DNA of 64,000 nt from a virus, in IMG/VR virus record IMGVR_UViG_3300031800_000001, positions 52,087 to 116,086 of that record, one strand, 5' to 3'. Positions 195 to 19,699 of the stretch are shown one piece after another. Every line of letters starts with the position of its first letter. Position 1 is the first letter of the stretch. The position numbers and the translations under genes are program-made. The notes beneath the pieces are model-generated. The model ran no database searches. It worked only from the letters and a program-made list of their open reading frames with translations, and was not told where the DNA came from.

Positions 195-3100
195 ATGGCT
201 CAAAAGGAAGTATCTGTACAGATTACGCAATTGAGTGCAAGCGTAGAAGCTGCCTCTTCTGCCGGTGCTTCTGTGTCCCAATCTACATCCAGCGCTACAG
301 TAATCAGCGCCAAATCAGCAGGAGCACAGACTATCATGGCTGGGCCTCAGGGGCCAGCAGGGCCATCTGGTATATCTGGCATGCAAGGAATATCCGGTAT
401 GTCTGGCACAGGTCCAATAGGACCAAGTGGAGCTACTGGAGCCTCTGGCATTTCTGGAACGCAAGGAGAACAAGGTTCTCAGGGTGACCAAGGCGACCAA
501 GGGATTCAGGGTCCAAGCGGAGCTACAGGAGTCTCGGGTATTTCTGGAACGCAGGGCATCCAAGGCCCTTCTGGGGCTACTGGCATTTCGGGTATTTCTG
601 GAATGCAAGGAGGACAGGGTATTCAAGGAACCCAAGGCGACCAAGGCGACCAAGGCGACCAAGGAATTCAGGGGCCAAGCGGGGCCACGGGAATTATAGG
701 AGCCACGGGCAGCCAAGGCCCTATAGGACCGCATATCACAGGAATTAGTGGTAGTGGGACAGGGGTAAGCTTCTTTGTCTCCGGAGGAGGCATCCTCGGG
801 CCAATAAACATACAAGGACCAAGCGGTGCGACAGGCACTAGTGGAATATCAGGGTTAAAAGGAGACTCGGGACCTCAAGGAGATGTCGGAAGTACTGGAC
901 CAACGGGCCCTCAGGGCTCGCAAGGGGATCAAGGCCTTGTTGGCGGAGACACTTTTAACTTTTATTTTAGTACAGATACCATAGACACAGACCCCACAAA
1001 TGGATATTTAAAATTTGGGAATTCCACCTACTCAAGCATAACCGAAATATACGTCGATGATATGGAAAAAGGTGGAGACTCCATAACTGACTGGGTCGAT
1101 GCCTTAGATGACGTTTATCAATCAAGAATAAAAGTTTTCTCGGCTAGTGACGCAGAAAAGTGGGCGGTCTTCAAAGTAGTTTCGGACAACACCGCAAAGG
1201 TCGGCTATACCCAAATCAATGTTAATTATATAGCTCATAGCGATTTATTCGTAGTAGACGAAGAGGTAGCAATGACTTTTGCGCCAGCCGCACAAGGCCC
1301 GAAGGGGGATACTGGACCGACGGGGCCGGGAGGCGCTCAAGGCGATCAGGGGGATCAAGGGGTTGCTGGAACTAGCGGCATTGGAATCACTGGTATAAGT
1401 GGGAGCGGAACAGGGGTAAGCTTTTTATTATCTGGTGGCGGAACTCTTGGTCCAATAAATATACAGGGCCCATCTGGTTTATCTGGTTTATCTGGAATAT
1501 CAGGAATGCCGGGAGGTCTGGGAAGCACAGGCCCTCAAGGAGCTCAAGGTGACAAAGGCGACAAAGGCGACCAAGGCGACCAAGGAATTCAGGGAATCCA
1601 AGGACCAAGCGGGGCCACAGGAGCCACAGGAGCCGTGGGGCCGCACATTACAGGCGTAAGTGGCAGTGGGACAGGGGTAAGCTTTTTAGTCTCAGGAGGA
1701 GGCGTCATTGGACCAATAAATATACAAGGGCCCTCTGGGCTTACAGGAATCTCCGGAATGCCGGGAGGACTAGGAAGCGCGGGTCCCCAAGGCGATCAAG
1801 GAATCCAAGGGTCGCAAGGCATACAAGGAACCCAAGGAGACCAAGGTCTTGTTGGCGGAGATAGCTTCGATTTTTATTGGACTACTGATACGGTAGTTTC
1901 TGACCCCGGAAATGGATACATAAAGTTTGATAATTCAACTTATGCAAATGTACAAAAAGTTTTAGTTGATGACCTAGAAAAAGGAGGGGATTCAATAATC
2001 GATTGGGTTAATTCTTTGGATCACGTAACCGGCTCTAGAATAAAAATATTCGACTCGGCCACTGCCGAAAAATGGGCCGTATTTAGGATAGGAAAAGATA
2101 ATACTGCTGGAGCAGGATATACCCAGCTTAATGTCAATTATATAGCTCATAGTGACTCTTTCACGTTAAACGAGGCAGTCACATTAACCTATGCACCAGC
2201 GGCCAGTGGAGCACCGGGGGATGCCGGACCAGCAGGGCCTTCGGGAGCTACGGGAGCTACAGGCGTGGCGGGAGAGGGAACAGGGGACTTCGGTGGATAT
2301 AGCTTTAGTTTTTATTATAATAGCGGGTATTCAGAAGCTCTTTGGTCCGAGGGGCCGGGAACCAGCGGGCTTAAGTTGGTGACTCCGAATAATGATATAC
2401 GTGACACGTCGGGCATAGATATATCTTATACTAATTATCGCGGGGGAGATGCTACTTACTGGCTTGAAGATTTTGGAAATTATGGTGATGTAGCAAATAG
2501 AGGCATATTAAAATTATTCCATCGAGATAAAGTCAATGTAGAGTGGGCTGCATTTTTGATTACTGGCCAGCCTGCAAGCCGTGATTCTTGGTCAAACGTA
2601 GGAGTTACATGGAAGTCCTCGTCGTCGAGCAGTCCGCCATTGTTTACTCACTCTGGGGAAACCGTAGTCTCTTTCGTTCCAGCTGGCCCAACCGGACAAG
2701 CAGGAGCAGCAGGAGCAGCAGGAGTAGGCGGCGGTGGCGGTGGTGGTGCTCCAGCCACTGGACATACTGGAGCATTTCAGTTCCATGGAGGCTCTATGAA
2801 TGACGTTGGCGTGGGTTCGCTTTCGGGGTCGAATGTACTTTTTGAAGGGCACGACTTCAACCAATCGACTACCGGATTTGAATACGCAAACGCAATAGGG
2901 ATTGGTCAGGAATTTCAAGAGCTAGCCCTCGGAAACATAGCTCAGTACCCGAACCCAGTCACGCCGGAGTACATCTTAGATTGCGGCATGTCGGGAACGT
3001 TGGACGTAAGGGGCGAGGTGTGGGTCAGTGGAAACCTTGTGCCTCATGTAAGCGGAGGCTTTAATTTGGGCTATAATGAGCCCGCCGGTCTCGGGGCAGA

Positions 3101-4241
3101 AACAAGAGGTAAATGGTGGGGGGAGATCTTTGCAGATAGTGGGACTTTTCATGGGGCCGCAGTTAACTCGCTTGACGTTATAAATCACGGGGCAAGAGTA
3201 AGCATCGGGGCAAGCCCCGACTACATGTATGGATCGGCAGGCGGATCATTATATTGTCCTACCGGCTATTTTGACAAGATAGGATCATGGCTAGATGCAC
3301 AGGGACAACCCCCACTGAATACAACTATGCATGGAGTTTTCCTTCACCAAAATTGTCTGCATTTCTCGCCAGAGCTTGACGGAGGGGCAGATCTTGGAAC
3401 CCCAGATTTATATTGGAGCAGTTTGTATTTAAACAACAACAGTCTCGTAATGTCAGGCGTAGGAATGACCGGCGCTGTGCATATCGGGTTCGATAATGAT
3501 CACAACCTTAGAATAAGCGCACCAAAGACTGGGAACGAAGTAACGATAAGCGGAACACCCTTAACGGGTTATTCTCCTAATACCGTGGCCGACATAAGGT
3601 TCTCCGGCACTGGACTGTCGGAGGCCACAACGCTAAGGGCCAATAGCGTTGGAGAGCTAACTATATCAACCCAAGGAGACGCAGGTGGGCAGACAACTAT
3701 TTCTAATGCTAAAATAACTTCGCCAATTTTTTCTGGAAACTCTGGGGTTTTTCGATCAGGAATAAACCTAACAAACACTGATCTTGGCATAACATATTTT
3801 GACGTACATGATGATGGTAATGCAGTAGGAGACATGACATTCTGTGGTCAAGTTAATCAATGCGTAGAAGACTTGGGGGAATTTGGCGAGACCGGATGGG
3901 TACCGGACCCATATGGTATAGGCATGGGTGGTACTGGATTCAGCATAAATATGGCTGGCAGCAACATGAAGAAATTCAACTTATGCTCGCATGCTCGCGG
4001 GCTTAATTTGACGAACATAAAGGCTGGGCGTTCAGTGACAATCCAGATCTTCGCAACAGACGGCTGTTTGACAGCAGACGATAATTATTACAGATTTTTA
4101 AGCGGTAACAACCTCAATTTTGTGGGAATTGAGCCGCATACCCTAAAGATAGGAAAAATGGGGCTACTGACAATAACCGCATACGGCACCGGCGCTAGCT
4201 CTTGCGTTTGTCACTGGGCTGAATCGGATTACACGGTTTAA
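195..4241 (+). CDS. collagen-like tail/capsid fibre protein (1348 aa)
   Basis: Long Gly-X-Y runs (GPSGATGISGISG, GDQGDQGIQ) are interrupted by about three copies of a globular domain (GGDTFNFYF.../GGDSFDFYW.../GGYSFSFYY...). It has a poly-Gly hinge and a C-terminal domain shared with 5345..6259. Confidence 0.85.
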   Translation: MAQKEVSVQITQLSASVEAASSAGASVSQSTSSATVISAKSAGAQTIMAGPQGPAGPSGISGMQGISGMSGTGPIGPSGATGASGISGTQGEQGSQGDQGDQGIQGPSGATGVSGISGTQGIQGPSGATGISGISGMQGGQGIQGTQGDQGDQGDQGIQGPSGATGIIGATGSQGPIGPHITGISGSGTGVSFFVSGGGILGPINIQGPSGATGTSGISGLKGDSGPQGDVGSTGPTGPQGSQGDQGLVGGDTFNFYFSTDTIDTDPTNGYLKFGNSTYSSITEIYVDDMEKGGDSITDWVDALDDVYQSRIKVFSASDAEKWAVFKVVSDNTAKVGYTQINVNYIAHSDLFVVDEEVAMTFAPAAQGPKGDTGPTGPGGAQGDQGDQGVAGTSGIGITGISGSGTGVSFLLSGGGTLGPINIQGPSGLSGLSGISGMPGGLGSTGPQGAQGDKGDKGDQGDQGIQGIQGPSGATGATGAVGPHITGVSGSGTGVSFLVSGGGVIGPINIQGPSGLTGISGMPGGLGSAGPQGDQGIQGSQGIQGTQGDQGLVGGDSFDFYWTTDTVVSDPGNGYIKFDNSTYANVQKVLVDDLEKGGDSIIDWVNSLDHVTGSRIKIFDSATAEKWAVFRIGKDNTAGAGYTQLNVNYIAHSDSFTLNEAVTLTYAPAASGAPGDAGPAGPSGATGATGVAGEGTGDFGGYSFSFYYNSGYSEALWSEGPGTSGLKLVTPNNDIRDTSGIDISYTNYRGGDATYWLEDFGNYGDVANRGILKLFHRDKVNVEWAAFLITGQPASRDSWSNVGVTWKSSSSSSPPLFTHSGETVVSFVPAGPTGQAGAAGAAGVGGGGGGGAPATGHTGAFQFHGGSMNDVGVGSLSGSNVLFEGHDFNQSTTGFEYANAIGIGQEFQELALGNIAQYPNPVTPEYILDCGMSGTLDVRGEVWVSGNLVPHVSGGFNLGYNEPAGLGAETRGKWWGEIFADSGTFHGAAVNSLDVINHGARVSIGASPDYMYGSAGGSLYCPTGYFDKIGSWLDAQGQPPLNTTMHGVFLHQNCLHFSPELDGGADLGTPDLYWSSLYLNNNSLVMSGVGMTGAVHIGFDNDHNLRISAPKTGNEVTISGTPLTGYSPNTVADIRFSGTGLSEATTLRANSVGELTISTQGDAGGQTTISNAKITSPIFSGNSGVFRSGINLTNTDLGITYFDVHDDGNAVGDMTFCGQVNQCVEDLGEFGETGWVPDPYGIGMGGTGFSINMAGSNMKKFNLCSHARGLNLTNIKAGRSVTIQIFATDGCLTADDNYYRFLSGNNLNFVGIEPHTLKIGKMGLLTITAYGTGASSCVCHWAESDYTV
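342..2280 (+). repeat. collagen Gly-X-Y coding repeats with an internal module duplication
   Basis: 9-nt units such as CAAGGCGAC recur. The segment (H/G)ITG(I/V)SGSGTGVSFxxSGGGxxGPINIQGPSG occurs three times (about 730, 1385, 1645). Confidence 0.85.
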
Positions 4242-4243
4242 CG

Positions 4244-5296: not shown

Positions 5297-5344
5297 AAAT
5301 AATTAGCAAGAACACGATCTGAACCCTAAAATAGAAAGAAGAAG

Positions 5345-6261: not shown

Positions 6262-7239
6262 ATGCATATAACAGACTGGAAAAGCACTGCTTGGCTACGA
6301 GCATTGGGACAGAAGTCTAGTTCAATCGTCGATGACGTTGAATTCAGGCCCGGAAAAGTTATATCCAAAAATCTTATTGGTCACTTTGATCCGAATAATA
6401 TTTCTTGTTATAACGGCGCTGTGGGAGGGGATACATACAGCAATTTGGTGGCCGGTCAGGAAGATTTATGTCTTTGGAATATGGATACGGTGCCGACGTT
6501 TGGCGAAACGCCTGATTTTGAATCACCGACAAGCACCTCGGTGGGCTATTTTATGGGAGATGGATTAGACAACTATATGCGCGAATGCGGGGGATATGCC
6601 GGAGGGTTCGCCCTTAATGTATCAAACGATTTTACCCTGAATGTCTGGGTTCAAGTGAATGCGGTTGCGCTTGGAAAACTAGGAGGCTCATCGTGTCCAA
6701 GATATGGAGGCTACATTGGGGTCGGTGCTATAAACGACAAGTCTAACGGTGGGTGTGCGGTTGGAGTTGTAGGAGACGATAGTGGGAACTACGGCAGGAT
6801 TGCCCTGTTCGCGCCGTCGGCGGATAGCCCGGCGGCGTATAGTGATCGCCGCTCAATCGGGTCGAAGATTGAGTCAAATAAATGGTATATGTTTTCACTA
6901 GTAAAAGAAGTTCTTAGTCCAAATTTTGATAGAATTACTTTGTATTTAAATGGGGTTTACCAAAGGTTAATTACGGGGGCGAATTGCACGCAAACTGGCA
7001 CAGGACAACACAAAGGAGAACTGATTCCGGCTGGCTATATTGGTGGGGCCCAACAGGTAGTTGTTATGGCTTTATGGCAAGAATATTACGGCATGGGTTC
7101 GCCTTCCCCCGCGTCGAGTGCTAATTTTGGCCACATTTTGGTATACAACAGGGCATTAAAACACTCAGAATTAAGACAAAACTATTTAGCGCTAAATCAA
7201 CTCTATTATCCATTTAGAGAAGGAGCAATAATACAATGA
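6262..7239 (+). CDS. LamG/concanavalin A-like lectin domain virion protein
   Basis: FTLNVWVQ, 'SNKWYMFSLV', 'TLYLNG' and 'ILVYNRALKHSELRQNY' are clear LamG_3 motifs. Confidence 0.8.
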   Translation: MHITDWKSTAWLRALGQKSSSIVDDVEFRPGKVISKNLIGHFDPNNISCYNGAVGGDTYSNLVAGQEDLCLWNMDTVPTFGETPDFESPTSTSVGYFMGDGLDNYMRECGGYAGGFALNVSNDFTLNVWVQVNAVALGKLGGSSCPRYGGYIGVGAINDKSNGGCAVGVVGDDSGNYGRIALFAPSADSPAAYSDRRSIGSKIESNKWYMFSLVKEVLSPNFDRITLYLNGVYQRLITGANCTQTGTGQHKGELIPAGYIGGAQQVVVMALWQEYYGMGSPSPASSANFGHILVYNRALKHSELRQNYLALNQLYYPFREGAIIQ

Positions 7240-7481
7240 GAGAAGACCTAAAATTTGTTATATTAAACGAGAACGAAGTGGGCTATGTTGACTTCACAGA
7301 AGTCCTTCAAACTAGCCCAGCGTCAATGAGATATTCTTTAGATAGAAGCAAAACATTTGTAAAATATAAAGGGGAGCAGCCCGAGTTTATATTTGAAATT
7401 ACAAACGATCTAGTGGGAAGAAAAGAATACTCACACCAAGAGTTTTTGGAAATACTTAGCACAGAAGAATGGAACCGATAA
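7236..7481 (+). CDS. small hypothetical phage protein (81 aa)
   Basis: ATGA overlap with the upstream gene. The VDFTEVLQTS..SMRYSLD.SKTFVKY.GEQP...YSH.E.LEIL...EW pattern resembles small proteins I recall beside LamG genes in aquatic phages (not verified). Confidence 0.7.
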   Translation: MREDLKFVILNENEVGYVDFTEVLQTSPASMRYSLDRSKTFVKYKGEQPEFIFEITNDLVGRKEYSHQEFLEILSTEEWNR

Positions 7482-9760
7482 AAGAACCACCCGAAGAGTA
7501 TACGCTGGCTCTGGGAGACGTGATAGTTGGCTTACGCAAACTAGACGACAGAACATTTGCGCCCAAAAATTCCAAAATTTTCAACTCCGTTTTAATCAAA
7601 AATGAAAAATCATACCTAACGGATAGGTTCAGAGTTTGCCTATCTACAGCAAACCAAGAAGAGGATATTCTAAATATACTGAATGATATAGAAGAAAAAA
7701 TGGAAGGTAAAAAATGGATTTTCTTCGTTGCCGATTATTCGAAGGGCGATGAGGCTTTCGAAAAAATAAAGCAACACACCACCTCTGCGGGTTCATTTTT
7801 CCCGATAAAGCTTAAACACTGTAAGGACGAGTTGTCCGCCGAAAAGGCTATAGGTAAAATATCTGACATCTACGAAGAAGAGTATCCATATAAGTTAGAT
7901 TTTAGAAAAGAAAACCCCTCAAAAATTGACCACAAAATACAAAGCTTTTGCTTCGTGGCCACAAAAGAAGTAAAAGAAGAAGCAGCAATTCTGATTAAAA
8001 GCCTCAGGGGATTTCATTCTGAGCCAATATATGTTGTTTGCGACAAGGAAACTGAATATTTCTTATCATGCATAGACTTGGACTTGAATGATATTTTCTT
8101 CAGGCTCGAAATGGAACAGAAGATTTTAGACGCTATAGACAAAAAATATAATTTTGAAAGAAAAAATAATTATCACCGGCCAGAATGCATCATAAAAAAA
8201 ATGGACTGCATGAGTTACGCCTTGGAAAACCACGACAACGTGTTCTTTTTGGATAGCGACATGATTGTGTTAGATTCTCTTCAGGAGAAGTTCGACAAAG
8301 ACATTTTCCTGTCTCCTCACTATCACAAGACGGGCACACCCGACTCGAACAACTCTGTTGATTATGGGTTCTTTAATGCAGGGTACGTGTTTTGTGCGAA
8401 TTCAGATTTGCCAAATTTCTGGAAGGACGCTTATATAAATGATTCTGATTTTTTTGAACAAGAATGCATGAACCAAATATGTGAGAAATTTGATGTCGGA
8501 TTTTTTAGTAACCGTCACAACGTAGGGTTTTGGAGAAAAAACTTTAATGCAAAAATTGAACCAAAAAGTATACATGTCCACGCGGTAGATAACGAAAATT
8601 TACAAAGGAACGCTGGGCTCAAATCAGAAAACAATAAATTAAAATTAAAAACAATTAAACTGCTGCAGTCTAGCGAAAACGAAAACCATCACGAGATATT
8701 AGAATTTATAAATAAAATAGATAGCGGGTGGGGAGGGAGACAGGAGAGTTTTAGGTTCGCAACATCAAACCCCAATGGAAAAATAAACTTAGGTTTGCAA
8801 ACCGTTTTCGATTCCCATAGGAGCGGCTGGAAATATGCTGTGAGCGCACTGGCTTCTTTACACAACAACAATGGAGTTTTGTTAGACGGATTCTTAGAGA
8901 ATAATTTCGCTTGGCATTTAGAAGAATACAGGAGAGAAAGAAAAGTTATACCCTATAAAATCCCTTGGGTTGGGTTTTTCCATAACCCACAGAACATGCC
9001 GCCTTGGTTTTTCAACAAGTATTCCTTACAGAACATTATTGCGGGAGATGAGTTCCAAGAAAGCCTCGAGCATTGCGTGGGGCTATTCACGTTATCGGAA
9101 TATCATGCAAAATACCTAAGGGAAACAACCGGCAAGACGGTATGCTCGCTTATTCATCCAACAGAAATACCCGAAACTCTTTTCGACTATGATAAATTTT
9201 TAAAAAATAAAAACAAACAAATAGTAAACATTGGCTATTGGTTGAGAAAATTAAATTCCATCTACTCAATCCCCATAGCCTCAGGAAACGAATACGTTAA
9301 ACTCAGGCTGATTCCCTATTCTTCTGCTAGACCGCTGGAAGTAATAGACAAGATGCTGCGGAAAGAAAAAGATATATACGACATAAGAATAGAACAAAAA
9401 TATATAGAAAACACAATAACAAAGAGCTCCCTTTCAAACGAAGACTACGATACACTTCTTTCCGAAAATATAGTCTTTTTAGATCTTTATGATTCTAGCG
9501 CAAATAACGCAGTGATAGAGTGTATGGCTCGCGCAACGCCGCTCCTTGTTAACCCGCTGCCGGCAGTAATAGAATACTTGGGCAAGGATTATCCATTTTA
9601 CTACGACTCCCTTGAGGAAGCCGCGGGAAAGGCCGAGAACTTTGAGCTAGTAAAAGAAACTCACGAATACCTTAAAGATTGCGAAATCAGAAAAAAATTA
9701 TCTCAAGAGCATTTTAAAAAATCGTTTGAAGAAAGCGAAGTGTACGGTCTATTAAAATGA
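7469..9760 (+). CDS. two-domain glycosyltransferase (GT-A plus GT-B-like)
   Basis: GT-A motifs FFLDSDMIV (DxD), FNAGYVF and FFEQECM. The C-terminal part has a GT-B-type donor-binding motif YDSSANNAVIECMARATPLLVN. Confidence 0.75.
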   Translation: MEPIKEPPEEYTLALGDVIVGLRKLDDRTFAPKNSKIFNSVLIKNEKSYLTDRFRVCLSTANQEEDILNILNDIEEKMEGKKWIFFVADYSKGDEAFEKIKQHTTSAGSFFPIKLKHCKDELSAEKAIGKISDIYEEEYPYKLDFRKENPSKIDHKIQSFCFVATKEVKEEAAILIKSLRGFHSEPIYVVCDKETEYFLSCIDLDLNDIFFRLEMEQKILDAIDKKYNFERKNNYHRPECIIKKMDCMSYALENHDNVFFLDSDMIVLDSLQEKFDKDIFLSPHYHKTGTPDSNNSVDYGFFNAGYVFCANSDLPNFWKDAYINDSDFFEQECMNQICEKFDVGFFSNRHNVGFWRKNFNAKIEPKSIHVHAVDNENLQRNAGLKSENNKLKLKTIKLLQSSENENHHEILEFINKIDSGWGGRQESFRFATSNPNGKINLGLQTVFDSHRSGWKYAVSALASLHNNNGVLLDGFLENNFAWHLEEYRRERKVIPYKIPWVGFFHNPQNMPPWFFNKYSLQNIIAGDEFQESLEHCVGLFTLSEYHAKYLRETTGKTVCSLIHPTEIPETLFDYDKFLKNKNKQIVNIGYWLRKLNSIYSIPIASGNEYVKLRLIPYSSARPLEVIDKMLRKEKDIYDIRIEQKYIENTITKSSLSNEDYDTLLSENIVFLDLYDSSANNAVIECMARATPLLVNPLPAVIEYLGKDYPFYYDSLEEAAGKAENFELVKETHEYLKDCEIRKKLSQEHFKKSFEESEVYGLLK

Positions 9761-10893
9761 ACGGAGATAAAAGACACAAAATGGCAATCCGTAAAAGGAT
9801 TAGGAAAGATAATTTCCTAGATTCCGAAGGGATAGTTAATACCCCCAGAAAGTCAGAAGGAAAATTTTGCAAGAATCCTTTTGACCAATTTGAAATTCAC
9901 CCTAACGGTATGGTGTCTGTTTGCTGCATGAGTTGGCTTCCCGAGAAAATAGGAAACGTCAAAGAAGAAAGCGTTAAGGAGGTTTTCAACTCGGAAAAAG
10001 CACAGGAAATAAGAGAAAGCATATTGGATGGTTCTTTCAAATACTGCGATCACAAACTATGCCCATACATACAGAACGGATCTTTGCCGGACAAGGAAGA
10101 GGTTACTGATCCTCGTCATAAATCAATTATAAAAAACAACAAAACAAAAGACCTTGAGCCGACGTTTTATAATCTTTGCTATGATGAGTCCTGTAATTTA
10201 AGCTGCCCAAGCTGTAGAAAAAATAAGATTCTTTATTACGAGGGCAAAGTTTATGAAGAAAAGAAAAAAATACAAGATAATATAATAAAACATATCTTCG
10301 GAAAGCCTCACGACAATTACTGCCTTATTAACGTAACTGGCTCGGGAGACCCATTCGGATCGAAGCTTTTTAGGGAACTGTTGTTTAGTATAGATGGAGA
10401 AAAATTTCCTAGGGTATTTTTTAATCTACAGACAAACGGGGTAATGTTCACCCCCAAGTATTGGGAAAAGATGAAAAGAATACAAAAAAACATCAACACA
10501 GTTATGGTTTCATATGACGCCGGAACACCAGAAACATATAAGATTACCCGCAGGGGAGGGGATTGGGATCAGCTTCAAAAAAATATGAAATTTCTGAGCT
10601 CTCTAAGACAAAAAGGTCTTATCAATGAGCTAAGAATAGACTGCGTTGTCCAAAAAGCTAACTACAAAGAATTAGATAAGCTAGTGAAGATAGGTTTAGA
10701 CTTGAAAGTGGATAAAGTATTTTTTTCGCTACTCGTAGATTGGGGCACATGGACACCCGAAATATACAAACAAAATTGTATATGGAAAAAAACACATCCA
10801 GAATTTGAAGAATTTACAAAGGCTTTGCTGAATCCAATTTTCAATGACCCGATTGTGGACTTAGGAAATTTAACGGAATACAAAAAATGTTAG
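9757..10893 (+). CDS. radical SAM protein with N-terminal SPASM/twitch-like domain
   Basis: CNLSCPSC (CxxxCxxC), GSGDPF and LQTNG. The N-terminal FCKNPF..FEIHPNGMVSVCC...IGNV...C...C is SPASM-like. Confidence 0.85.
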   Translation: MNGDKRHKMAIRKRIRKDNFLDSEGIVNTPRKSEGKFCKNPFDQFEIHPNGMVSVCCMSWLPEKIGNVKEESVKEVFNSEKAQEIRESILDGSFKYCDHKLCPYIQNGSLPDKEEVTDPRHKSIIKNNKTKDLEPTFYNLCYDESCNLSCPSCRKNKILYYEGKVYEEKKKIQDNIIKHIFGKPHDNYCLINVTGSGDPFGSKLFRELLFSIDGEKFPRVFFNLQTNGVMFTPKYWEKMKRIQKNINTVMVSYDAGTPETYKITRRGGDWDQLQKNMKFLSSLRQKGLINELRIDCVVQKANYKELDKLVKIGLDLKVDKVFFSLLVDWGTWTPEIYKQNCIWKKTHPEFEEFTKALLNPIFNDPIVDLGNLTEYKKC

Positions 10894-11594
10894 TATTTAA
10901 TAAATTAAAATGCGTGTTCACGCCCATATTGAAAGTGGGCACGAATAGTTTTTTTTACTATTGGGGAGACGTAATGTATGGAGAAGAAGACTCCTTGGTT
11001 AAGAAAGTGAAAAAAGGCACTGGTGGAGGTCACTCCACCAAACTTAGACATAGGGTTAAGAGGGATTTTAACGTGGAGTGGGACCCATCGGTTCGAGAGT
11101 CTGTTGCGGGCTATTATAAATTTGCTTTTGTAAGAAATCCGTGGGTCAGGGCCGTGTCGGCTTTTCGGGAACTAATAAGGCGGTATCCATTTGGGCAAAC
11201 CGTGGTAAACGAAGAAGCGGGGTTAACTTATTACGAAATATATGATTTAATGGATGGGCATGTGGATTTTGAAAATTTTATTAATTTTGTCGTAAATAGA
11301 GAAAGGGATCACACAAATGTAATTAATGGGCATTGGAGAACGCAAGTCGTGACTCTTTGTATGCATCATAAGGAAGGAGCTATGGAATATGATTTTTTTG
11401 GTAAATTGGAAAATGTTGATGATGATCTAAATAAGGCTCAAAAGCGTTTGGGTCTTGAAGAAACTAAATTATCCAAAGAGCATGAAACTGCGGCATACGA
11501 TTATAAATTGTACTACAAAAACAAAAAAATAATCGACATGGTCGGGGAATATTATAAAGAAGACATAGAGAAATTCGGTTATGATTTCGCATAA
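10887..11594 (+). CDS. sulfotransferase (Sulfotransfer_2 family)
   Basis: 5'-PSB PILKVGTNS, 3'-PB FAFVRNPWVRAVSAF, HWRTQ, DFFGKLEN and a terminal YYKEDIEKFGY. Confidence 0.85.
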   Translation: MLVFNKLKCVFTPILKVGTNSFFYYWGDVMYGEEDSLVKKVKKGTGGGHSTKLRHRVKRDFNVEWDPSVRESVAGYYKFAFVRNPWVRAVSAFRELIRRYPFGQTVVNEEAGLTYYEIYDLMDGHVDFENFINFVVNRERDHTNVINGHWRTQVVTLCMHHKEGAMEYDFFGKLENVDDDLNKAQKRLGLEETKLSKEHETAAYDYKLYYKNKKIIDMVGEYYKEDIEKFGYDFA

Positions 11595-12216
11595 GCATAA
11601 AATAATTTTCGTGCCCATCCCAAAGAACGCCAGCCGCTCTATCGCTTTTCTTATTAATGGGGATGAATCGGATTATGGACACTCTACTGCCAAGGGTCTA
11701 ATGAGAAAGCATAGGGAATATTGGGATGATTATTATAAGTTTTGTGTGGTAAGAAACCCTTATGATAGGATTGTGTCTGCATATCATCATTTCAAAACCA
11801 CGCAATTCAAGCGAGGCGTAAGGGGTTCGAAGCCAAGGCGTATGCAGAATTTACTTAAACAATATTCGGGTTTTCAGGATTTTGTTTTGAATTATCTTAA
11901 AGACGCAGAGTTGGTTCAGTTCCGTTTAGTGTCGGGGGCTGATATTTCCATCAGCCCTACTGTGCATTTTTACCCTCAAATTATGTGGCTGTTAAACTCA
12001 AATGGTAAAATAAATGACAATATAAATATATTTAAATTTGAAAAATTAGACGAAGTAGTACAAAAGCTAACGACAGAATACGATATGTCTAACGAGTTTG
12101 GCCACCTCAACAAGGGCAAACGAAACCACTACTCTGAATACTACACAGACGAGCTTTATGAAGTTATTTACAAGAAGTACCAAAAAGACTTCGAGTTATT
12201 AGGCTATGACAGATAA
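11581..12216 (+). CDS. sulfotransferase (Sulfotransfer_2 family)
   Basis: IFVPIPKNASRS, FCVVRNPYDRIVSAY, HFYPQ, FKFE and YQKDFELLGY. Confidence 0.9.
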   Translation: MISHKHKIIFVPIPKNASRSIAFLINGDESDYGHSTAKGLMRKHREYWDDYYKFCVVRNPYDRIVSAYHHFKTTQFKRGVRGSKPRRMQNLLKQYSGFQDFVLNYLKDAELVQFRLVSGADISISPTVHFYPQIMWLLNSNGKINDNINIFKFEKLDEVVQKLTTEYDMSNEFGHLNKGKRNHYSEYYTDELYEVIYKKYQKDFELLGYDR

Positions 12217-13537
12217 AATTTATTGCACCAGAGCTTTTGATCATGTTCAATTATTGGACAATGGAGAAATGACACCGTGTTGTCCTCCGTGGGTTGATCA
12301 TTATTCTATAGGCAATATAAATGAACAATCATATGAGGAAATTTGGAACGGCGAAAAAGCTCAAAAATTTAGGGAGTCCATATTAGACGGCTCTTTTCGA
12401 TATTGTAACGCTAAATCTTGTCCACATTTACAATCCCAAACACATTGCGTCGGGACAGTAAAACAATTAAAACAACGCAAATTAATAAATGATTCAATAC
12501 TTTACGACATACTGCATGAAGATGTCGTTTTAAATCATGGGCCTCATGAAATACAATTTTGTTACGACAGATCATGCAATCTATCTTGTCCATCATGCAG
12601 GAGAGGAATAATAATGGTTTCTGGCAAAAAGAAACAAAAATTGTTAGATATGCAAAACAAGCTACAAGCAGACTTTCTAAAAGACGCGGATCGACTTATC
12701 GTTACTGGATCTGGAGACGCATTTGCTAGTCCTATTTTTCGAAAATTCCTGCAAACATTCACAAAAGAACAAGCGCCGAAGCTGCGGCATATAAATATAT
12801 TGACAAACGGCTTACTCATTAAGAAGCACTGGGCAACGCTTAGCGAGTATGCCAAGGAAAAAATTCAATACATTAGCGTATCTATAGACGCAGCAACGCC
12901 GGAAACATATACTATAAACAGGAGGGGTGGAGACTGGAATTTGCTACATGAAAATTTAAAATTTGTTGAAGACTTGAAGGCTGCTAATGAAATTAAAGCA
13001 TTTCAGACTAGTATCGTGGTACAAGATAATAATTTTCGTGAACTGTTTGATTTTATTTTAATGTGTGAAAAATATGCCGTGGACTCTGTTCAGTTGCAAA
13101 TTATTGAGCCAGATTTTATACGGGATTTGGGATACGGTGATTATCTTGAGGAATGGATTCAAAAAGCTGTCCACGAAAAGGTTCATCCTAATCATAACGA
13201 ATTATTAAACATTCTCAAAGATGACTTCTTTAATATTTATATAAACAGATATAACGGTGAAGCTCCAGCCGGAACAGCCGTTTCAATGGGTCAATTGTTT
13301 AATTTAAGAAACGGTAGCGATATATCGCAATATGATCAACTACTAGAAGAAGAAGAAAAACTAAAGTTAGCTAAAAAAAGCTCGCTAAAGGACATATGGT
13401 ACAATAACAAAGTTTATTTTGTCGCTCCCGAAACCCTGAAAAAAATAAACGGAACCGACACAGCCAAGCTACCAACGGGAGAAACGATCATCTGGGACGA
13501 AGATAAAGAGAAGTGGGCAAAATACCATGCCTATTAA
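12206..13537 (+). CDS. radical SAM protein with N-terminal SPASM/twitch-like domain (paralogue of 9757..10893)
   Basis: YCTRAF...NGEMTPCC...IGNI...FRESILDGSFRYC...CP, then CNLSCPSC, GSGDAF, ILTNG and SIDAATPETY..NRRGGDW. Confidence 0.85.
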   Translation: MTDKIYCTRAFDHVQLLDNGEMTPCCPPWVDHYSIGNINEQSYEEIWNGEKAQKFRESILDGSFRYCNAKSCPHLQSQTHCVGTVKQLKQRKLINDSILYDILHEDVVLNHGPHEIQFCYDRSCNLSCPSCRRGIIMVSGKKKQKLLDMQNKLQADFLKDADRLIVTGSGDAFASPIFRKFLQTFTKEQAPKLRHINILTNGLLIKKHWATLSEYAKEKIQYISVSIDAATPETYTINRRGGDWNLLHENLKFVEDLKAANEIKAFQTSIVVQDNNFRELFDFILMCEKYAVDSVQLQIIEPDFIRDLGYGDYLEEWIQKAVHEKVHPNHNELLNILKDDFFNIYINRYNGEAPAGTAVSMGQLFNLRNGSDISQYDQLLEEEEKLKLAKKSSLKDIWYNNKVYFVAPETLKKINGTDTAKLPTGETIIWDEDKEKWAKYHAY

Positions 13538-14198
13538 CAGAAAAAGCGAGTTGCTCTTCATTCACATCCCCAAAACAGGCGGAACAAAAATAGAAGAAAT
13601 ACTAGATATGAAATTCGCGGGGGATGACCCTAAGGTTTCAAGCGAAAAACTATATGGGTTTGTAAGAATATACGACGAACTCCATGAACTACAGCACTTA
13701 ACATACAAACAAACATTAGATTTTGGGCTGGTCGACAAAAGCCTGTTCGATAAATGCTATAAATTCGCATTCGTCAGAAATCCGCTTGACAGGGTTGTGT
13801 CTGAATATTTTTGGTTAGGATACAAATACTTTTCTAAGTTCGAGGACTTCGTTGAGTTTTTACATAAGAGAAAAGGAGAACCGGATGTTCGCGGTACTGT
13901 AGAAAATTACATGTCTCTCGACTGGCTTTTAAATTCCCCCTTCTATGCGCCCCAACATAAATTCATTTGCGACAGAAGAGGTAAATTAATGGTTGATTTT
14001 TTAGGCAGATTTGAAAACTTCCCTAAAGATTTAGCTACCCTATTGGACAATCTAGGAGTGGAATACGACGAAGAATTTTTATTTAAAAAAGTAAATGCTA
14101 CGAAACACGAAAAATATACCACTTACTACAACAAAAAAACAAGAGACATGGTTAAATCCATATATAAGAGAGATTTCGAAATATTTGGTTACGAATAA
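13527..14198 (+). CDS. sulfotransferase (Sulfotransfer_2 family)
   Basis: LFIHIPKTGGT, FAFVRNPLDRVVSEY, DFLGRFEN and YKRDFEIFGY. Confidence 0.9.
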   Translation: MPINRKSELLFIHIPKTGGTKIEEILDMKFAGDDPKVSSEKLYGFVRIYDELHELQHLTYKQTLDFGLVDKSLFDKCYKFAFVRNPLDRVVSEYFWLGYKYFSKFEDFVEFLHKRKGEPDVRGTVENYMSLDWLLNSPFYAPQHKFICDRRGKLMVDFLGRFENFPKDLATLLDNLGVEYDEEFLFKKVNATKHEKYTTYYNKKTRDMVKSIYKRDFEIFGYE

Positions 14199-14212: not shown

Positions 14213-14464
14213 ATGCCTTACTATGACAGCGTAAACCTACTCAAAACTAACTGTACAGTGGAATGGGATGGTGACCCCGGCAAAAAGATCTGCTCTGCTC
14301 GCGGAGGAGAGTTAATACATCCCGGGTGGCCCCTACAGAGAGATGTCAGGGCCAGAACAAGAAGATTAGACATAGACAGACTGGGGTCAATAAGGTACGA
14401 CCAGCCCGGGAGAAGGGTTTCTGACGGTAAGTTTCCACGTTTTACAGAACAATGGATTAGTTAA
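14213..14464 (+). CDS. hypothetical protein (83 aa)
   Basis: Fills the gap between operons and is flanked by GTGTAA motifs. No recognisable domain. Confidence 0.55.
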   Translation: MPYYDSVNLLKTNCTVEWDGDPGKKICSARGGELIHPGWPLQRDVRARTRRLDIDRLGSIRYDQPGRRVSDGKFPRFTEQWIS

Positions 14465-14490: not shown

Positions 14491-15000
14491 ATGAAAGCCG
14501 TAGATATTGCAGACCAAATCCACAGAGAATTAGGAAGCCCGACAGACCTAGGCATAGCCGCTATAGCATTTTGGGTACGCACAAACATTGGCGCGCTGAA
14601 TAACTACCTGAATACCAGCTATGCAATTAATCAATCTTCGTATGAAATAGAGAGAGATATCAATGGTACAGCAACCGCAATAGGTATTAATGAAGGGGGT
14701 ATACTCAAAAAAATGTATACAATACACTATTACGACAATAAACTGAGGAGCGTATTATCCGCAGCAACCTCAGATGCGGTTATCGCTTTGTCTTCAGACG
14801 GGTCATCAATTAAAAAGATTAACAAAAACGAACAAGCAAAGCTCTATGCGACCATACGCGGCGCAAGCCAATCAGAATTGGAGCGCATGGTGGGTCAATA
14901 CAAGCTGAACGACGTACAACCATTACAGGTGGCAGGGGACGACGATCAATCGGCGTATATACTTCCGAATAGAGAATATGTAAGAATTAGGAAATACTAA
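14491..15000 (+). CDS. putative head-tail adaptor (neck) protein
   Basis: First of four tightly coupled genes upstream of the tail tube. Size and helical character fit an adaptor; assignment is positional. Confidence 0.5.
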   Translation: MKAVDIADQIHRELGSPTDLGIAAIAFWVRTNIGALNNYLNTSYAINQSSYEIERDINGTATAIGINEGGILKKMYTIHYYDNKLRSVLSAATSDAVIALSSDGSSIKKINKNEQAKLYATIRGASQSELERMVGQYKLNDVQPLQVAGDDDQSAYILPNREYVRIRKY

Positions 15001-15002
15001 TT

Positions 15003-15443
15003 ATGGCGAGCTTAGTATCAGCAGACGAAATCAACTCGTTCACGGGTGATTTTCAGAATTTATTTGACACTTTTAAGAGGTCGATCACGGTGCACAAGGC
15101 ACCTAAAAAGATCATTAACCAAATAAATACTGATTTTTTACATGGTTACGGCGATTCATCTGATCAGGTTAATTATACATATTCTCCGGTGTCTAAAGCT
15201 TTTGATTGCATGGTGCTATACAAAGACAGACAGGAGGCAGACGAAATGGAAAATATTAACTTAACCTATTTCGCCGGAGACATAAGAATAAAGGTCGACG
15301 AAGAAACGAAAGACTACATACGAAACGGAAAAACAGAAAAGATTTCAGTAGACGGAAAAGACTTTCAGCTAATGACTGAAGAATCTGTGAAGTATTTTTT
15401 CGGAATAAAGCTTTATGTTTTTCATCTACAATTTACCAAGTAA
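15003..15443 (+). CDS. putative head-closure (stopper) protein
   Basis: 146 aa and beta-rich, ending KISVDGKDFQL...YVFHL. Position fits the SPP1 gp16/lambda FII slot. Confidence 0.5.
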   Translation: MASLVSADEINSFTGDFQNLFDTFKRSITVHKAPKKIINQINTDFLHGYGDSSDQVNYTYSPVSKAFDCMVLYKDRQEADEMENINLTYFAGDIRIKVDEETKDYIRNGKTEKISVDGKDFQLMTEESVKYFFGIKLYVFHLQFTK

Positions 15444-16030
15444 TGAGAATAAACCCAATAAAAATCAAAAGAAAGATAGTAAGGAACATAAAAAAAGTTC
15501 CTGAAAGGGTTAAAATAGAGGCTCAAAGAAAGTTTAACCGAGCAAAACGAGAAATGATAACTGAATTTGAAAGCCACCCGATTACTCAAGAGCTAGAAGG
15601 CGGACCTATGGGAGGAAACGTCTCTGGCACGCTTGGAGGAGTAGGAAATCTATTTAGTTTCATAGGTTTTCAAGAAGGATCAAATCCAATAGCTACGCTA
15701 AGAGAGATGCTAAATAATTACCGGATCAATATTATGTCACCAAAGATAATTAAAAGAAGTTCCGGGGTAGACTTTCAATTTAGGGTAACTGGCCCAAGTA
15801 TGGCAGAAATTGAAGCAGCAACATATCTAAGTTGGCTTGGGAAAAGTTGGGTAAGAGGCGTAGAAAGAGGTATGACTGGGTTGGGAAACTATTTAGCGCT
15901 GATGGGAGCAATCGGAAGTAGATCAGGAGGGGGTATACAGGCAAAAACATCATATAGGGGAGGAGCCTATAGGCCCACTAAATACATGAGTTCGTTATTG
16001 AGAACGTTCTTTTTAAATTTTAGAAGATAA
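15443..16030 (+). CDS. putative neck/tail-completion protein (HK97 gp10-like slot)
   Basis: Basic protein with GNLFSFIGF and WVRGVERG motifs, TAATG overlap; positional inference. Confidence 0.5.
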   Translation: MRINPIKIKRKIVRNIKKVPERVKIEAQRKFNRAKREMITEFESHPITQELEGGPMGGNVSGTLGGVGNLFSFIGFQEGSNPIATLREMLNNYRINIMSPKIIKRSSGVDFQFRVTGPSMAEIEAATYLSWLGKSWVRGVERGMTGLGNYLALMGAIGSRSGGGIQAKTSYRGGAYRPTKYMSSLLRTFFLNFRR

Positions 16031-16945
16031 ATGAAAGCACAATTTGACAATAAAGTGATGTCCAGCTTCTTGCTGTGGTTCGACCACACGCTGCTTAGAG
16101 AAGGCGAAGCGTTTACGGACATCTCTAGTTGGTTTTACCCCGTGGAGAGCCTACATAATAACCTGTATACATACGGTGCCCCATTCAAGCAGTTCGTAAG
16201 TGATTTTTCTATAACAGGAACCGGCGCGGCATTCGCCAACAGAACAGTACAGATTCCTACCGGAATCTATCTAGATGGTTCGCTCATAGGAACGGGGACA
16301 AGCAATTTTAGTGGCATGAGTTACGAGCAGGGGCAAGTTTATTTTGGCACAGAAATAACAACCCCCGAAACAAGGCTGAGTGGTGATTATGCCGTAAAGG
16401 ATTTCAATGTATATCTAACTAACGAGCCAGAAGAAAAATTGCTTTTTGAGACGAAGTTCCACCTAAGGCCTAAAACCGCCGAAACACAAACAGGCTTAGC
16501 TTCTAACGCGATAACCTATCCAGCTATTTTTTTAAGATATAACGGTTCCCACAGTGAACCATTGGCGTTTGGCGGGTATGACATGACGACCATAAATCTA
16601 AGGGCGGTAGTCTTGGCGGATAATCAATTTAATTTAGACGCTGTTTGTTCCATAATGAGGGACAAGGTAAGAACATTTTTTACGTTATTTGGTACAGGGG
16701 ATATGCCTTACAACACTCTTGGTGACTATAAAAGCGGTGTGCCTTGGAGCTATACCGGAAAGAAAGCAAGTTATGAAGAAAACAGTTACATTTTCATAGA
16801 AAACGTAGGAATTTCTAAATTTTCTAGAGATGTGAACGTTAAGGTAAATAATTTGAACCCGGATGTCTTTAATGGTGTAATTGACTTTGAGGTTACGAAA
16901 CCTAGGTATCCTCGAAAGGCTAATAGAAATCAGGATTTACAATAA
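16031..16945 (+). CDS. putative tail terminator protein
   Basis: Directly upstream of the tail tube. YPAIFL...INLRAVVLADNQFNLDAVCSIMRD...GVIDFEV matches the terminator-fold pattern. Confidence 0.55.
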   Translation: MKAQFDNKVMSSFLLWFDHTLLREGEAFTDISSWFYPVESLHNNLYTYGAPFKQFVSDFSITGTGAAFANRTVQIPTGIYLDGSLIGTGTSNFSGMSYEQGQVYFGTEITTPETRLSGDYAVKDFNVYLTNEPEEKLLFETKFHLRPKTAETQTGLASNAITYPAIFLRYNGSHSEPLAFGGYDMTTINLRAVVLADNQFNLDAVCSIMRDKVRTFFTLFGTGDMPYNTLGDYKSGVPWSYTGKKASYEENSYIFIENVGISKFSRDVNVKVNNLNPDVFNGVIDFEVTKPRYPRKANRNQDLQ

Positions 16946-17004
16946 CAAAAAAAGTTTTCCCTAAAAACTAAAAAATATGTAATAAAAAGAAAGGATTATA
17001 AATC

Positions 17005-18312
17005 ATGGCAAGAAACAGAGTTATTTATCAAAGTGAGGCTCTCTATGTGAGTCAAACACCGGCTGTTAGTGGCTTCTTTACTGACAAAACTGCCGTTGGT
17101 GCAGAAGGATATATCAGCGCTCCGCTGCATCCATCTGGAAACCAAGTAAGGCAGTTGCACAGAATTCAGACCGCTAACTATTCGTTTAACATACCGCGCA
17201 CAGACATTAACCAGTTTGGCGAGTTGGCTGCTATCGACAGAGTTGTAATGGACACTCCCACGGTAGCATTGGACTTCAGTTACATACTAGCAACCATGGA
17301 AAACGAAATGAATCTTGGATTCGTTACGGATGGACATGCTAGCTGCATTTCTGGGATTCTTAATAAGACACAAGACGAGAAAAACTACTTCATCAAGACT
17401 GTTGGTGAGGGTGTTGACGCCGTCGGAGATCTTGGACCCGAAAAAGACAGCATCGCAATCGAAGGAGATTACGAGTTTGTAATTGGAATTGGCAATGGAT
17501 TCATTACCTCGTACACGACAGAGTGTTCGGTGGGTAATTTCCCAACTGTTACAATAAATGTTGAGGGTCTTAACATGACTTTCGAGAGCGGCGTGAGTGG
17601 CGCAAGCCCCGCGGTGAAGCCCGAAAGTGGAACAAGACTTGAGCATTTCAAGTATATTCTTCCGACTACCACAGGCAGCGCCGAGACAGGAATTATGGCA
17701 ACAAGCGCCCTGCGCCCCGGAGACATCACCTTCGCCTTCGCGAAAGCCGATAGAGAATCAGTGCAATTATCTGGTACGCTCTTCGATTCGGTTACCGACG
17801 ACGAGGATACGTATGATGCTCCCGGAGCACACCTCGGAAACATGGATTCCAAAGCACACGCTAAGATTCAAAGCTACAACATCAGTCTAGATATGGCAAG
17901 AGAGCCGATCAACAGACTCGGAAGCCGGTTTGCGTTCTCTCGTGAGATCACATTCCCGATGTCCGTGACCTGTACGATTGACGCTCTGGTGGCCGATCTG
18001 ACCACTGGTAGTTTGTCGGATATCATCAATTGTGATGATTCTTACGACATCGTAGTTAACCTTCTGCGTCCCACAAGCTGCCCCGGCACGCTTACTGATG
18101 GAACCGCAAAGGATATCTTCGCCCAGTATTGGTTGAAGAACTGCAAAGTGAATAGCCAAGCGTTTAGCTCGGATATCGGCAGCAACAAGAGTGTGACTCT
18201 CGAGTTCGCAACTCAGGTTGGTGGACCGAACCAGAAGAACCAAGGCTTGTTTATGAGCGGTATCTCGACTGGATATCTCTCGATGCAAAGAGATGCGAGT
18301 GCTGATTCCTAA
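17005..18312 (+). CDS. major tail tube protein
   Basis: Located between the terminator and the chaperones/TMP. Two internally repeated beta halves (IQTANYSFNIPRTDINQFG / IQSYNISLDMAREPINRLG). Has an upstream AAGGA and is followed by a strong terminator. Confidence 0.75.
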   Translation: MARNRVIYQSEALYVSQTPAVSGFFTDKTAVGAEGYISAPLHPSGNQVRQLHRIQTANYSFNIPRTDINQFGELAAIDRVVMDTPTVALDFSYILATMENEMNLGFVTDGHASCISGILNKTQDEKNYFIKTVGEGVDAVGDLGPEKDSIAIEGDYEFVIGIGNGFITSYTTECSVGNFPTVTINVEGLNMTFESGVSGASPAVKPESGTRLEHFKYILPTTTGSAETGIMATSALRPGDITFAFAKADRESVQLSGTLFDSVTDDEDTYDAPGAHLGNMDSKAHAKIQSYNISLDMAREPINRLGSRFAFSREITFPMSVTCTIDALVADLTTGSLSDIINCDDSYDIVVNLLRPTSCPGTLTDGTAKDIFAQYWLKNCKVNSQAFSSDIGSNKSVTLEFATQVGGPNQKNQGLFMSGISTGYLSMQRDASADS

Positions 18313-18341
18313 GCCGAATTAAGCAACTAAACCTTAACCAG

Positions 18342-18369
18342 CCCCCGGTGAAAACCGGGGGTTTTTTTT
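18342..18369 (+). terminator. rho-independent terminator after the tail tube gene
   Basis: CCCCCGGT-GAAA-ACCGGGGG is a perfect 8-bp stem with a GNRA loop, followed by T8. Confidence 0.9.
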
Positions 18370-19673: not shown

Positions 19674-19699
19674 CCCCCGCCTCAGGTGGGGGTTTTTTT
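19674..19699 (+). terminator. rho-independent terminator-like hairpin between the two chaperone genes
   Basis: CCCCCGCC-TCA-GGTGGGGG stem (one G-U pair) followed by T7. Confidence 0.75.

Follow-up and report, generated by a model that had tools for sequence, protein, structure and literature searches.

The 64-kb window analysed here (IMG/VR virus record IMGVR_UViG_3300031800_000001) is the final part of a 116-kb record from an uncultured marine phage, with a CheckV completeness estimate of ∼71%, and contains a cassette of six genes encoding a glycosyltransferase (GT), two radical S-adenosylmethionine (SAM) enzymes (rSAM-1 and rSAM-2) and three sulfotransferases (ST-1, ST-2 and ST-3). The first-pass annotation had described six overlapping, translationally coupled genes in the order GT-rSAM-ST-ST-rSAM-ST, and we found six plus-strand open reading frames (ORFs) in this order at exactly the coordinates it gave, 7469-14198 (Table 1), with overlaps of 4, 7, 14, 11 and 11 nt between consecutive genes. 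Its statement that the cassette continues the fibre genes without an intergenic gap was also borne out, since an 81-aa ORF bridges the final fibre-module gene and the GT gene, overlapping them by 4 nt and 13 nt, respectively. The cassette is more AT-rich than its flanks, again as previously noted; its GC content of 37.1% is the lowest in the record, the genome as a whole averaging 43.6% (sd 3.3%, 2-kb windows). The GC content at third codon positions (0.32-0.42) is similar to that of the neighbouring genes, and the AT shift therefore reflects mainly amino-acid composition rather than recent foreign origin or codon usage.

Table 1. Genes of the cassette and neighbouring features of the window
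Feature	Position	Strand	Basis
81-aa small ORF	7236..7481	+	Overlaps final fibre-module gene and GT
763-aa three-module glycosyltransferase	7469..9760	+	Fold and invariant DxD
rSAM-1, 378 aa, radical SAM with N-terminal twitch/SPASM-type Fe-S domain	9757..10893	+	Pfam
ST-1, 235 aa, Sulfotransfer_2	10887..11594	+	PF03567, 80.3 bits
ST-2, 211 aa, Sulfotransfer_2	11581..12216	+	PF03567, 64.5 bits
rSAM-2, 443 aa, rSAM-1 paralog, N-twitch, ∼100-aa C-terminal extension	12206..13537	+	Pfam
ST-3, 223 aa, Sulfotransfer_2	13527..14198	+	PF03567, 73.9 bits
Collagen-like tail fibre, 1,348 aa, candidate acceptor	195..4241	+	Collagen repeats, E 1.5e-32; tail-fibre PHROGs
Neck/tail genes (169, 146, 195, 304 and 435 aa)	14491..18312	+	Synteny with distant relatives

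The 763-aa protein consists of three modules, i.e. a GT2-like N-terminal Rossmann piece (aa ∼45-145), a GT8-like GT-A domain (aa ∼147-400) and a GT4-type GT-B domain (aa 435-763). It had no Pfam, NCBIfam or PHROG match, and a hidden Markov model (HMM) of the protein searched against PDB sequences gave just one marginal GT2 match (E 0.66); because there was no usable sequence match, its identification rests on its fold. The AlphaFold model, made from an alignment of 14 full-length homologs (mean predicted local distance difference test score, pLDDT, 80), matched glycogenin, LARGE1 and GlyE (GT8) as well as SenB, SdgB and BshA (GT-B) in Foldseek searches (E 1e-7 to 6e-9). The GT8-like domain matched glycogenin, LARGE1 and GlyE with E ∼1e-7 and template-modelling (TM) scores to the target of 0.54-0.60, and VIA-align superposed aa 435-763 on SenB with a Z score of 21.1 (rmsd 3.3 Å, 277 residues aligned) and on the GT4 enzymes PimA, HepE, BshA, TarM, PglA and MshA with Z scores of 17-19. 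D262 and D264 of the DxD motif are invariant in the 14 homologs, aa ∼147-400 is the most widely conserved stretch, and the N-terminal ∼100 residues score as Glycos_transf_2 in two homologs (aa 47-103 in P0015). At family level there was no Pfam match to GT8 (PF01501) at E ≤ 0.01, so that the GT8 likeness is one of fold and DxD motif; for GT4 (PF00534/PF13692) the likeness is one of fold, there being no PF00534 match anywhere in the genome, and none of the 120 stand-alone GT-B relatives listed carries a Pfam domain. The earlier label 'GT' was correct, for what proves to be a three-module enzyme, and its confirmation comes solely from the fold.

Both radical SAM proteins scored above the Pfam cut-offs for Radical_SAM (PF04055, 29.5 bits) and SPASM (PF13186, 21.5 bits), in agreement with the domains previously assigned to them. 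In rSAM-1 the SPASM match covers aa 38-98 (46.2 bits) and the Radical_SAM match aa 146-285 (44.1 bits), and in rSAM-2, which is 35% identical to rSAM-1, they cover aa 7-72 (56.5 bits) and aa 123-254 (36.7 bits); the C146-x3-C150-x2-C153 motif of rSAM-1 is invariant in 15 homologs. The auxiliary Fe-S domain is thus N-terminal to the radical SAM core in both proteins. SPASM and twitch domains are canonically C-terminal to the core, with 7-8 cysteines for SPASM and ∼4 for twitch. In the N-terminal domain of rSAM-1, C38, C56, C57, C97 and C102 are invariant and one further cysteine is near-invariant, which would fit a single auxiliary cluster i.e. a twitch-like domain. The best NCBIfam match was NF033640 (N_Twi_rSAM), which also has a Cys-rich twitch/SPASM-type domain N-terminal to the core and was matched over model positions 3-330 of 398. 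However, the scores of 85.6 bits (rSAM-1) and 71.4 bits (rSAM-2) were far under the cut-off of 170, so neither enzyme is a member by the curated rule, and the cellular relatives lack GT and ST partners. We know of no member of NF033640 with a known reaction, and we found no literature on the combination of an N-terminal twitch domain with a radical SAM core.

The model of rSAM-1 (pLDDT 89, predicted TM score 0.87) has a core fold that resembles viperin, NifB, DesII, BlsE, SuiB and SkfB about equally. Several of these enzymes act on nucleotides or nucleotide-sugars. Proteins like rSAM-1 and like rSAM-2 form distinct orthologous subfamilies that co-occur in several of the six architecture groups into which the related loci fall, and in groups D and E they are fused into proteins of 812-845 aa, with the rSAM-2-like half first and two complete N-twitch units (e.g. 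L105:8627-11065, with equivalents in L104, L106, L108, L112, L114 and L115). By the Rosetta-stone argument, this fusion suggests that the two enzymes work together. The suggestion that they might be sulfatase maturases was not supported: the anaerobic sulfatase-maturating enzyme model NF010321, which has a cut-off of 441 bits, gave a score of only 21.1, and no PF00884 sulfatase is encoded in the 116 kb.

All three STs exceeded the cut-off of 22 bits for Sulfotransfer_2 (PF03567; Table 1) and have an intact 5'-phosphosulfate-binding lysine loop and an intact RNPxxRxxS 3'-phosphate-binding motif, so the family assignment made by the first-pass annotation stands. K16, R84 and P86 did not vary among 13 aligned viral STs, and at least 90% of these sequences shared N85 and R89. 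The nearest solved relatives of the resulting profile were heparan-sulfate 6-O and 2-O sulfotransferases, at a weak level (E 1e-3 to 2e-3). ST-2 and ST-3 match phrog_3347 'Galactose-3-O-sulfotransferase' (E 9e-25 for ST-3), and ST-3 is 99.6% identical in the close relative L004 and 29% identical to the ORF232 sulfotransferase of Ralstonia phage phiRSL1. These features would make the STs carbohydrate-type enzymes dependent on 3'-phosphoadenosine 5'-phosphosulfate (PAPS).

Sugar chemistry is also indicated by protein fusions and by the neighbours of the module in other viruses. P0139, an rSAM-1-like protein (57% identity), carries an N-terminal CBM48/AMPK1_CBM glycogen-binding module, and in P0106 a GT8-like domain is fused to a sulfotransferase domain. 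The families enriched near the module in ten diverse viral loci were Glycos_transf_1/4 (6), GT25 (3), GDP-mannose 4,6-dehydratase, NAD-epimerases, cytidylyltransferase, polysaccharide pyruvyl transferase, PAP2 and heptose kinase/adenylyltransferase. The 116 kb searched (∼71% of the genome) contain no adenosine 5'-phosphosulfate (APS) kinase, epimerase, GT1 or GT2 and no thymidylate-synthase-like gene or sulfatase, absences that are provisional because ∼29% of the genome is missing. With no APS kinase, epimerase or further GT of its own, the phage would need its donors supplied by the host. Judged from these lines of evidence together, it is quite likely that the cassette combines the building of a glycan with its radical SAM editing and sulfation. 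The first-pass annotation had proposed a possible sulfated-glycan coat pathway acting on the phage's own fibres or on the host surface; its chemistry is well supported by the domains, motifs, fusions and sugar-related neighbours, and the fibres are a candidate target.

The rSAM family was represented by 457 confirmed stretches in viral contigs and 433 in cellular genomes, and we used purpose-built HMMs to count the neighbours within ±10 kb of the best 80 of these viral loci and the best 80 of the cellular ones. Both sets were chosen by their resemblance to rSAM-1, which means that the proportions cannot be read as an unbiased census. A GT-B domain, encoded mostly immediately upstream of the rSAM gene, was found at 31 of 79 viral loci and one of 80 cellular loci, and an ST at 19 viral loci and no cellular locus. 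The GT-B gene and the N-twitch rSAM gene are a virus-specific module. Several of the cellular rSAM homologs apparently lie between dnaJ-dapB and carAB, and only a few are near DegT or GT2 genes. Among 50,697 deposited phage genomes there was no match to the whole cassette by blastn, or to rSAM-1, the GT-B domain, the GT8-like domain or the 435-aa structural protein by tblastn; ST-3 is the only part with matches in this set (28-31% identity).

Close relatives of the locus (L004, L005, L006 and L091) have flanks that are 83-100% identical, and in all of them the 81-aa ORF, the GT and rSAM-1 are retained. The other positions vary: L004, in which the GT is 92% identical, has a methyltransferase in place of ST-1, L005 has two genes of no assigned function in the tailoring slots and L006 lacks the last ST. 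The tailoring slots are therefore swapped between close relatives while the flanks stay fixed. The 81-aa ORF is directly upstream of the GT in every group A relative, including L091 (45% identity, with the GT at 40%), which makes it a possible seventh member of the cassette that could serve as a chaperone, acceptor or adaptor. It had no family match in profile searches that included PHROGs, and the other architecture groups yielded no counterpart. The idea of one small partner ORF shared by all groups was tested and rejected, since those that precede GT-B in different groups are not related to one another.

On a larger scale, distant relatives of the genes downstream of the cassette (28-41% identity) have the order 169-146-195-304-435 (lengths in aa) followed by a giant tape measure, and upstream of these genes they have portal-sized and capsid-sized genes, not fibres and a cassette. 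This synteny supports the assignment of the downstream genes as putative neck and tail genes, and of the fibre and cassette block as a probable accessory insertion; the previously described position just upstream of neck genes is thus supported, by synteny only. The 435-aa protein resembles clusters bearing Phage_tube_2, which is a lead only. The first strong plus-strand terminator after the fibre genes is at 18340-18363, so that the fibre genes, the cassette and the neck genes lie on one run free of strong terminators.

The first-pass annotation had expected homologous cassettes to be linked to structural genes. This is the case in groups A and C, the only groups with a location in the structural region, and not recognisably so in the other four of the six groups. 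In groups D and E the module has NDP-sugar epimerases on one side and ribonucleotide reductase on the other, and in group F it is apparently a few genes from a DNA polymerase, which was assigned by size (844-885-aa ORFs in L139 and L142), with a family tally that does not resolve individual loci. A placement of groups D and E in a siphovirus structural module was rejected, the supposed 822-aa tape-measure protein being a ribonucleotide reductase and the supposed 346-aa capsid protein a GT. In group C a 72-aa lipoprotein-like ORF (signal peptide, then Cys) is found directly upstream of the GT-B gene (L097:7134-7352, with equivalents in L098, L099, L102 and L152).

The closest described counterpart, from pelagimyophages and cyanomyophages, is the 'host recognition cluster' (HRC; Zaragoza-Solas et al. 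2020, PMC7029224). This hypervariable island precedes a neck gene and combines tail fibres with a GT8-rich set of GTs and with radical SAM cassettes that differ between close relatives. The locus analysed here is likewise a variable fibre, GT and rSAM island in the structural region, upstream of putative neck genes. However, the HRC backbone is T4-like (VrlC ... gp14), whereas the structural proteins here have no match in deposited phages or PHROGs, and this phage, with its tape measure of 6,037 aa, has no detectable similarity to deposited T4-like phages. Sulfotransferases occur three times here and have 0 occurrences in PMC7029224, a paper in which the GT-B/N-twitch-rSAM pair, the paralogous rSAMs as a pair and the fusions are likewise not defined. 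A related Sulfotransfer_2-type gene was found in only one cultured phage, phiRSL1, where ORF232 clusters with three GTs and two NDP-sugar pyrophosphorylase-type genes (ORF232-238; L167, record 159456-172088); unlike the present cassette, that cluster has its own APS kinase, has no N-twitch rSAM and adjoins a thymidylate-synthase-family gene rather than fibres, and it is likewise uncharacterised.

Glycosylation of virions is known from mycobacteriophages of the Che8/Corndog/Myrna type (Freeman et al. 2023, as cited in PMC12619734 and PMC12801897). According to these citing accounts, they too encode soluble GTs, which decorate their own capsid and tail proteins in the cytoplasm, but the GT families and hosts are different and no radical SAM or ST step is known there; in the present phage the virion proteins are candidate acceptors. 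There is also a likeness to eukaryotic glycosaminoglycan and matriglycan synthesis, which uses a dual-domain GT (the bifunctional polymerase LARGE1, whose GT8 domain is one of our Foldseek matches), O-sulfation of the Sulfotransfer_2 type (heparan-sulfate 2-O/6-O and chondroitin sulfotransferases) and sugar editing (a C5-epimerase), although this likeness is at the level of fold and family only and the editing enzymes here are radical SAM proteins.

In the explanation that we favour, the cassette would be a self-contained cytoplasmic line for building and tailoring a glycan, with NDP-sugars, SAM and PAPS as inputs from the host. The GT8-like domain, with its DxD motif and its metal-dependent, retaining-type fold, and the GT-B module would lay down a short, probably two-sugar-type glycan. 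The paired rSAM-1 and rSAM-2 would then act on the sugar or on its nucleotide-sugar precursor via H-atom abstraction, the candidate reactions being epimerisation, oxidation, deoxygenation and C-C chemistry, and up to three carbohydrate-type STs would O-sulfate different positions. The acceptors would be the exposed virion proteins of the phage, i.e. the fibres and other surface proteins rich in Ser/Thr-Gly dipeptides ([ST]G), made from the same late run, which would thereby be decorated with a sulfated glycan; swaps of the tailoring genes would make its fine structure differ quickly from one relative to the next. We hold this explanation as a whole only tentatively, at rather less than an even chance, and the identification of virion proteins as the acceptor is open to slightly more doubt still. 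In favour of a virion acceptor are the gene overlaps and the shared run without a strong terminator; moreover, none of the six cassette proteins has a transmembrane-like segment, and no flippase, polymerase or initiating transferase was found with the cassette. [ST]G was enriched (z of at least 3) in 8 of 64 genes, a subset of the presumed virion surface proteins that includes the fibres and an ORF of 3,676+ aa, with 91 observed against 48 expected in the 1,348-aa fibre and, in the most extreme case, 300 against 121 in the 3,676+-aa ORF. This enrichment may mark glycosylation sites. The level was ∼2-2.5-fold above that of shuffled sequences (z 3-20) at 195-6259, 16031-16945, 50942-51859 and 52971-64000, and a 436-aa ORF located 10.8 kb before the window is also enriched.

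A number of observations weigh against decoration of the virion. The [ST]G enrichment can be a structural or compositional property of fibrous proteins, the fold matches of the rSAM core do not discriminate between substrates, and the match of the ST profile to solved carbohydrate STs is weak, as given above. The cellular rSAM neighbourhoods have no consistent partner and no sugar-specific context, and the absences of an APS kinase and of other GTs are provisional. In the four groups in which the module is not beside recognisable structural genes, its neighbours are NDP-sugar enzymes, ribonucleotide reductase, DNA polymerase and sigma factors, and a collagen-like ORF, which we considered as a general companion of the module, was rejected since it is present at only 4 of the 31 viral GT-B-carrying loci, all in groups A and C. 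GT8 and GT4 are, moreover, classic families of soluble transferases of the lipopolysaccharide (LPS) core. This is one of the points that favour a different acceptor for the same chemistry, namely the LPS core or lipid-linked O-antigen or capsule units at the inner face of the host membrane, where a sulfated surface would block superinfection or stop progeny from sticking to debris; the cassette would then lie beside the fibres because receptor and receptor-binding proteins co-vary. The fibre/GT8/radical-SAM clusters of PMC7029224 were read as modifiers of the host O-chain, the module is often outside structural regions, genes for GT25 'LPS biosynthesis', heptose kinase/adenylyltransferase, PAP2 and polysaccharide pyruvyl transferase are found near it in other phages, and the group C module is preceded by the lipoprotein-like ORF. 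As membrane proteins, flippases and lipid-carrier transferases are all lacking from the cassette, and a late-looking terminator-free run with fibre and neck genes would be poorly timed for exclusion, we regard modification of the host surface as the main but somewhat unlikely alternative. A bolder version of virion decoration, which we think distinctly unlikely, is a proteoglycan-like coat over the fibres and the giant surface proteins, in which the GT would polymerise a repeat on Ser/Thr-Gly sites, the rSAM units, fused or paired, would epimerise or edit it, and the three STs would write a variable sulfation code.

The remaining explanations do without a surface glycan. Operons of a dioxygenase and an ST that would sulfate collagen-like and tail-collar proteins were predicted by Iyer et al. 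2010 (PMC2938197), a prediction that provides a conceptual precedent for direct modification of fibres, in which the rSAMs would oxidise or epimerise residues of the collagen-like fibre, the STs would O-sulfate them and the GT would add single sugars, as on collagen hydroxylysine. The 1,348-aa collagen-like fibre lies 3 kb upstream and SPASM/twitch enzymes are mostly peptide maturases, but the rarity of collagen-like ORFs at GT-B-carrying loci, the carbohydrate type of the STs, the CBM48-rSAM fusion and NDP-sugar neighbours, which point to sugars, and the failure to find a leader-peptide recognition domain or RiPP recognition element (RRE; RiPP, ribosomally synthesised and post-translationally modified peptide) make this improbable. 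We give slightly less weight again to a soluble small molecule or RiPP-like product unrelated to surfaces, such as a sulfated glycoside or a modified form of the 81-aa peptide or of an 83-aa peptide encoded just 3' of the cassette. RiPPs are often the products of radical SAM/SPASM enzymes, a small conserved ORF lies on either side of the cassette and the closest GT-B folds, SenB, BshA and MshA, use small acceptors; however, these ORFs are confined to the lineage, have no counterpart in the other module groups and are devoid of Cys-rich or repeat core features, and no transporter or protease is present. Least probable of all is DNA hypermodification, i.e. glycosylation of modified bases by the GT-B domain with subsequent editing and sulfation of the sugar. 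The GT-B fold is shared with the DNA glucosyltransferases of phage T4, and the phiRSL1 ST clusters with GTs, an APS kinase and a thymidylate-synthase-family gene, but the 116 kb contain no thymidylate-synthase/hydroxymethylase homolog, the GT-B domain finds its best matches in SenB and GT4 enzymes rather than in T4 AGT/BGT, the cassette lies in the run of fibre and neck genes, and a polysaccharide is suggested by the CBM48 fusion.

Islands of fibre, GT and radical SAM genes of the HRC type are already known, with a function that is so far putative, and phage sulfotransferases have no known role (PMC10580990). What distinguishes this cassette is its three STs, its virus-specific GT-B/N-twitch-rSAM core, its paired and elsewhere fused rSAM duo, and its rSAM-1, GT-B and GT8-like families, which are those without a match in the deposited phage genomes. 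No reaction has been assigned to the N-terminal-twitch radical SAM family, although its members in viruses and cells number in the hundreds, and its GT-B partner family has no Pfam model; the cassette, with six or seven genes, intact motifs and natural swap variants, is a compact system in which to test both, and the phiRSL1 cluster is an accessible cultured system for testing phage sulfation. Decoration of the virion, if true, would show that glycosylation of phage particles is found in marine phages as well as mycobacteriophages, with sulfation and radical editing as additional steps, whereas decoration of the host would give a concrete mechanism for the long-assumed 'LPS genes' of marine phage host-recognition islands. 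A proteoglycan-like coat, if true, would be a bacterial-virus analogue of glycosaminoglycan biosynthesis and would provide the first reaction for a very large unstudied radical SAM family.

Several further features were observed at this and related loci. In four metagenome-assembled genomes (L034, L036, L037 and L049; two Lysobacterales/Xanthomonadales, one gammaproteobacterial and one binned as Nitrosopumilus) the gene sizes and the family tally suggest that an rSAM-1-like gene is a lone insertion between dnaJ-dapB and carA-carB, without sugar genes in its vicinity. In the window, two hairpins that resemble strong intrinsic terminators (7 GC pairs, T-runs), at 18340-18363 and 19674-19692, lie directly 3' of the 435-aa (tail-tube-like) ORF and of a 327-aa ORF, respectively, and their position suggests that the run of fibre, cassette and neck genes may end after a highly expressed tail gene. 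Beyond them is the giant 6,037-aa ORF taken as the tape measure (20761-38874), and a second giant ORF (>3,676 aa, 52971-63998) extends beyond the window. Finally, the 83-aa ORF just 3' of the cassette (14213-14464) encodes a basic protein that is 99-100% identical in L004 and L005, a conservation that exceeds that of every neighbour, and its GC content of 48% is far above that of the cassette.

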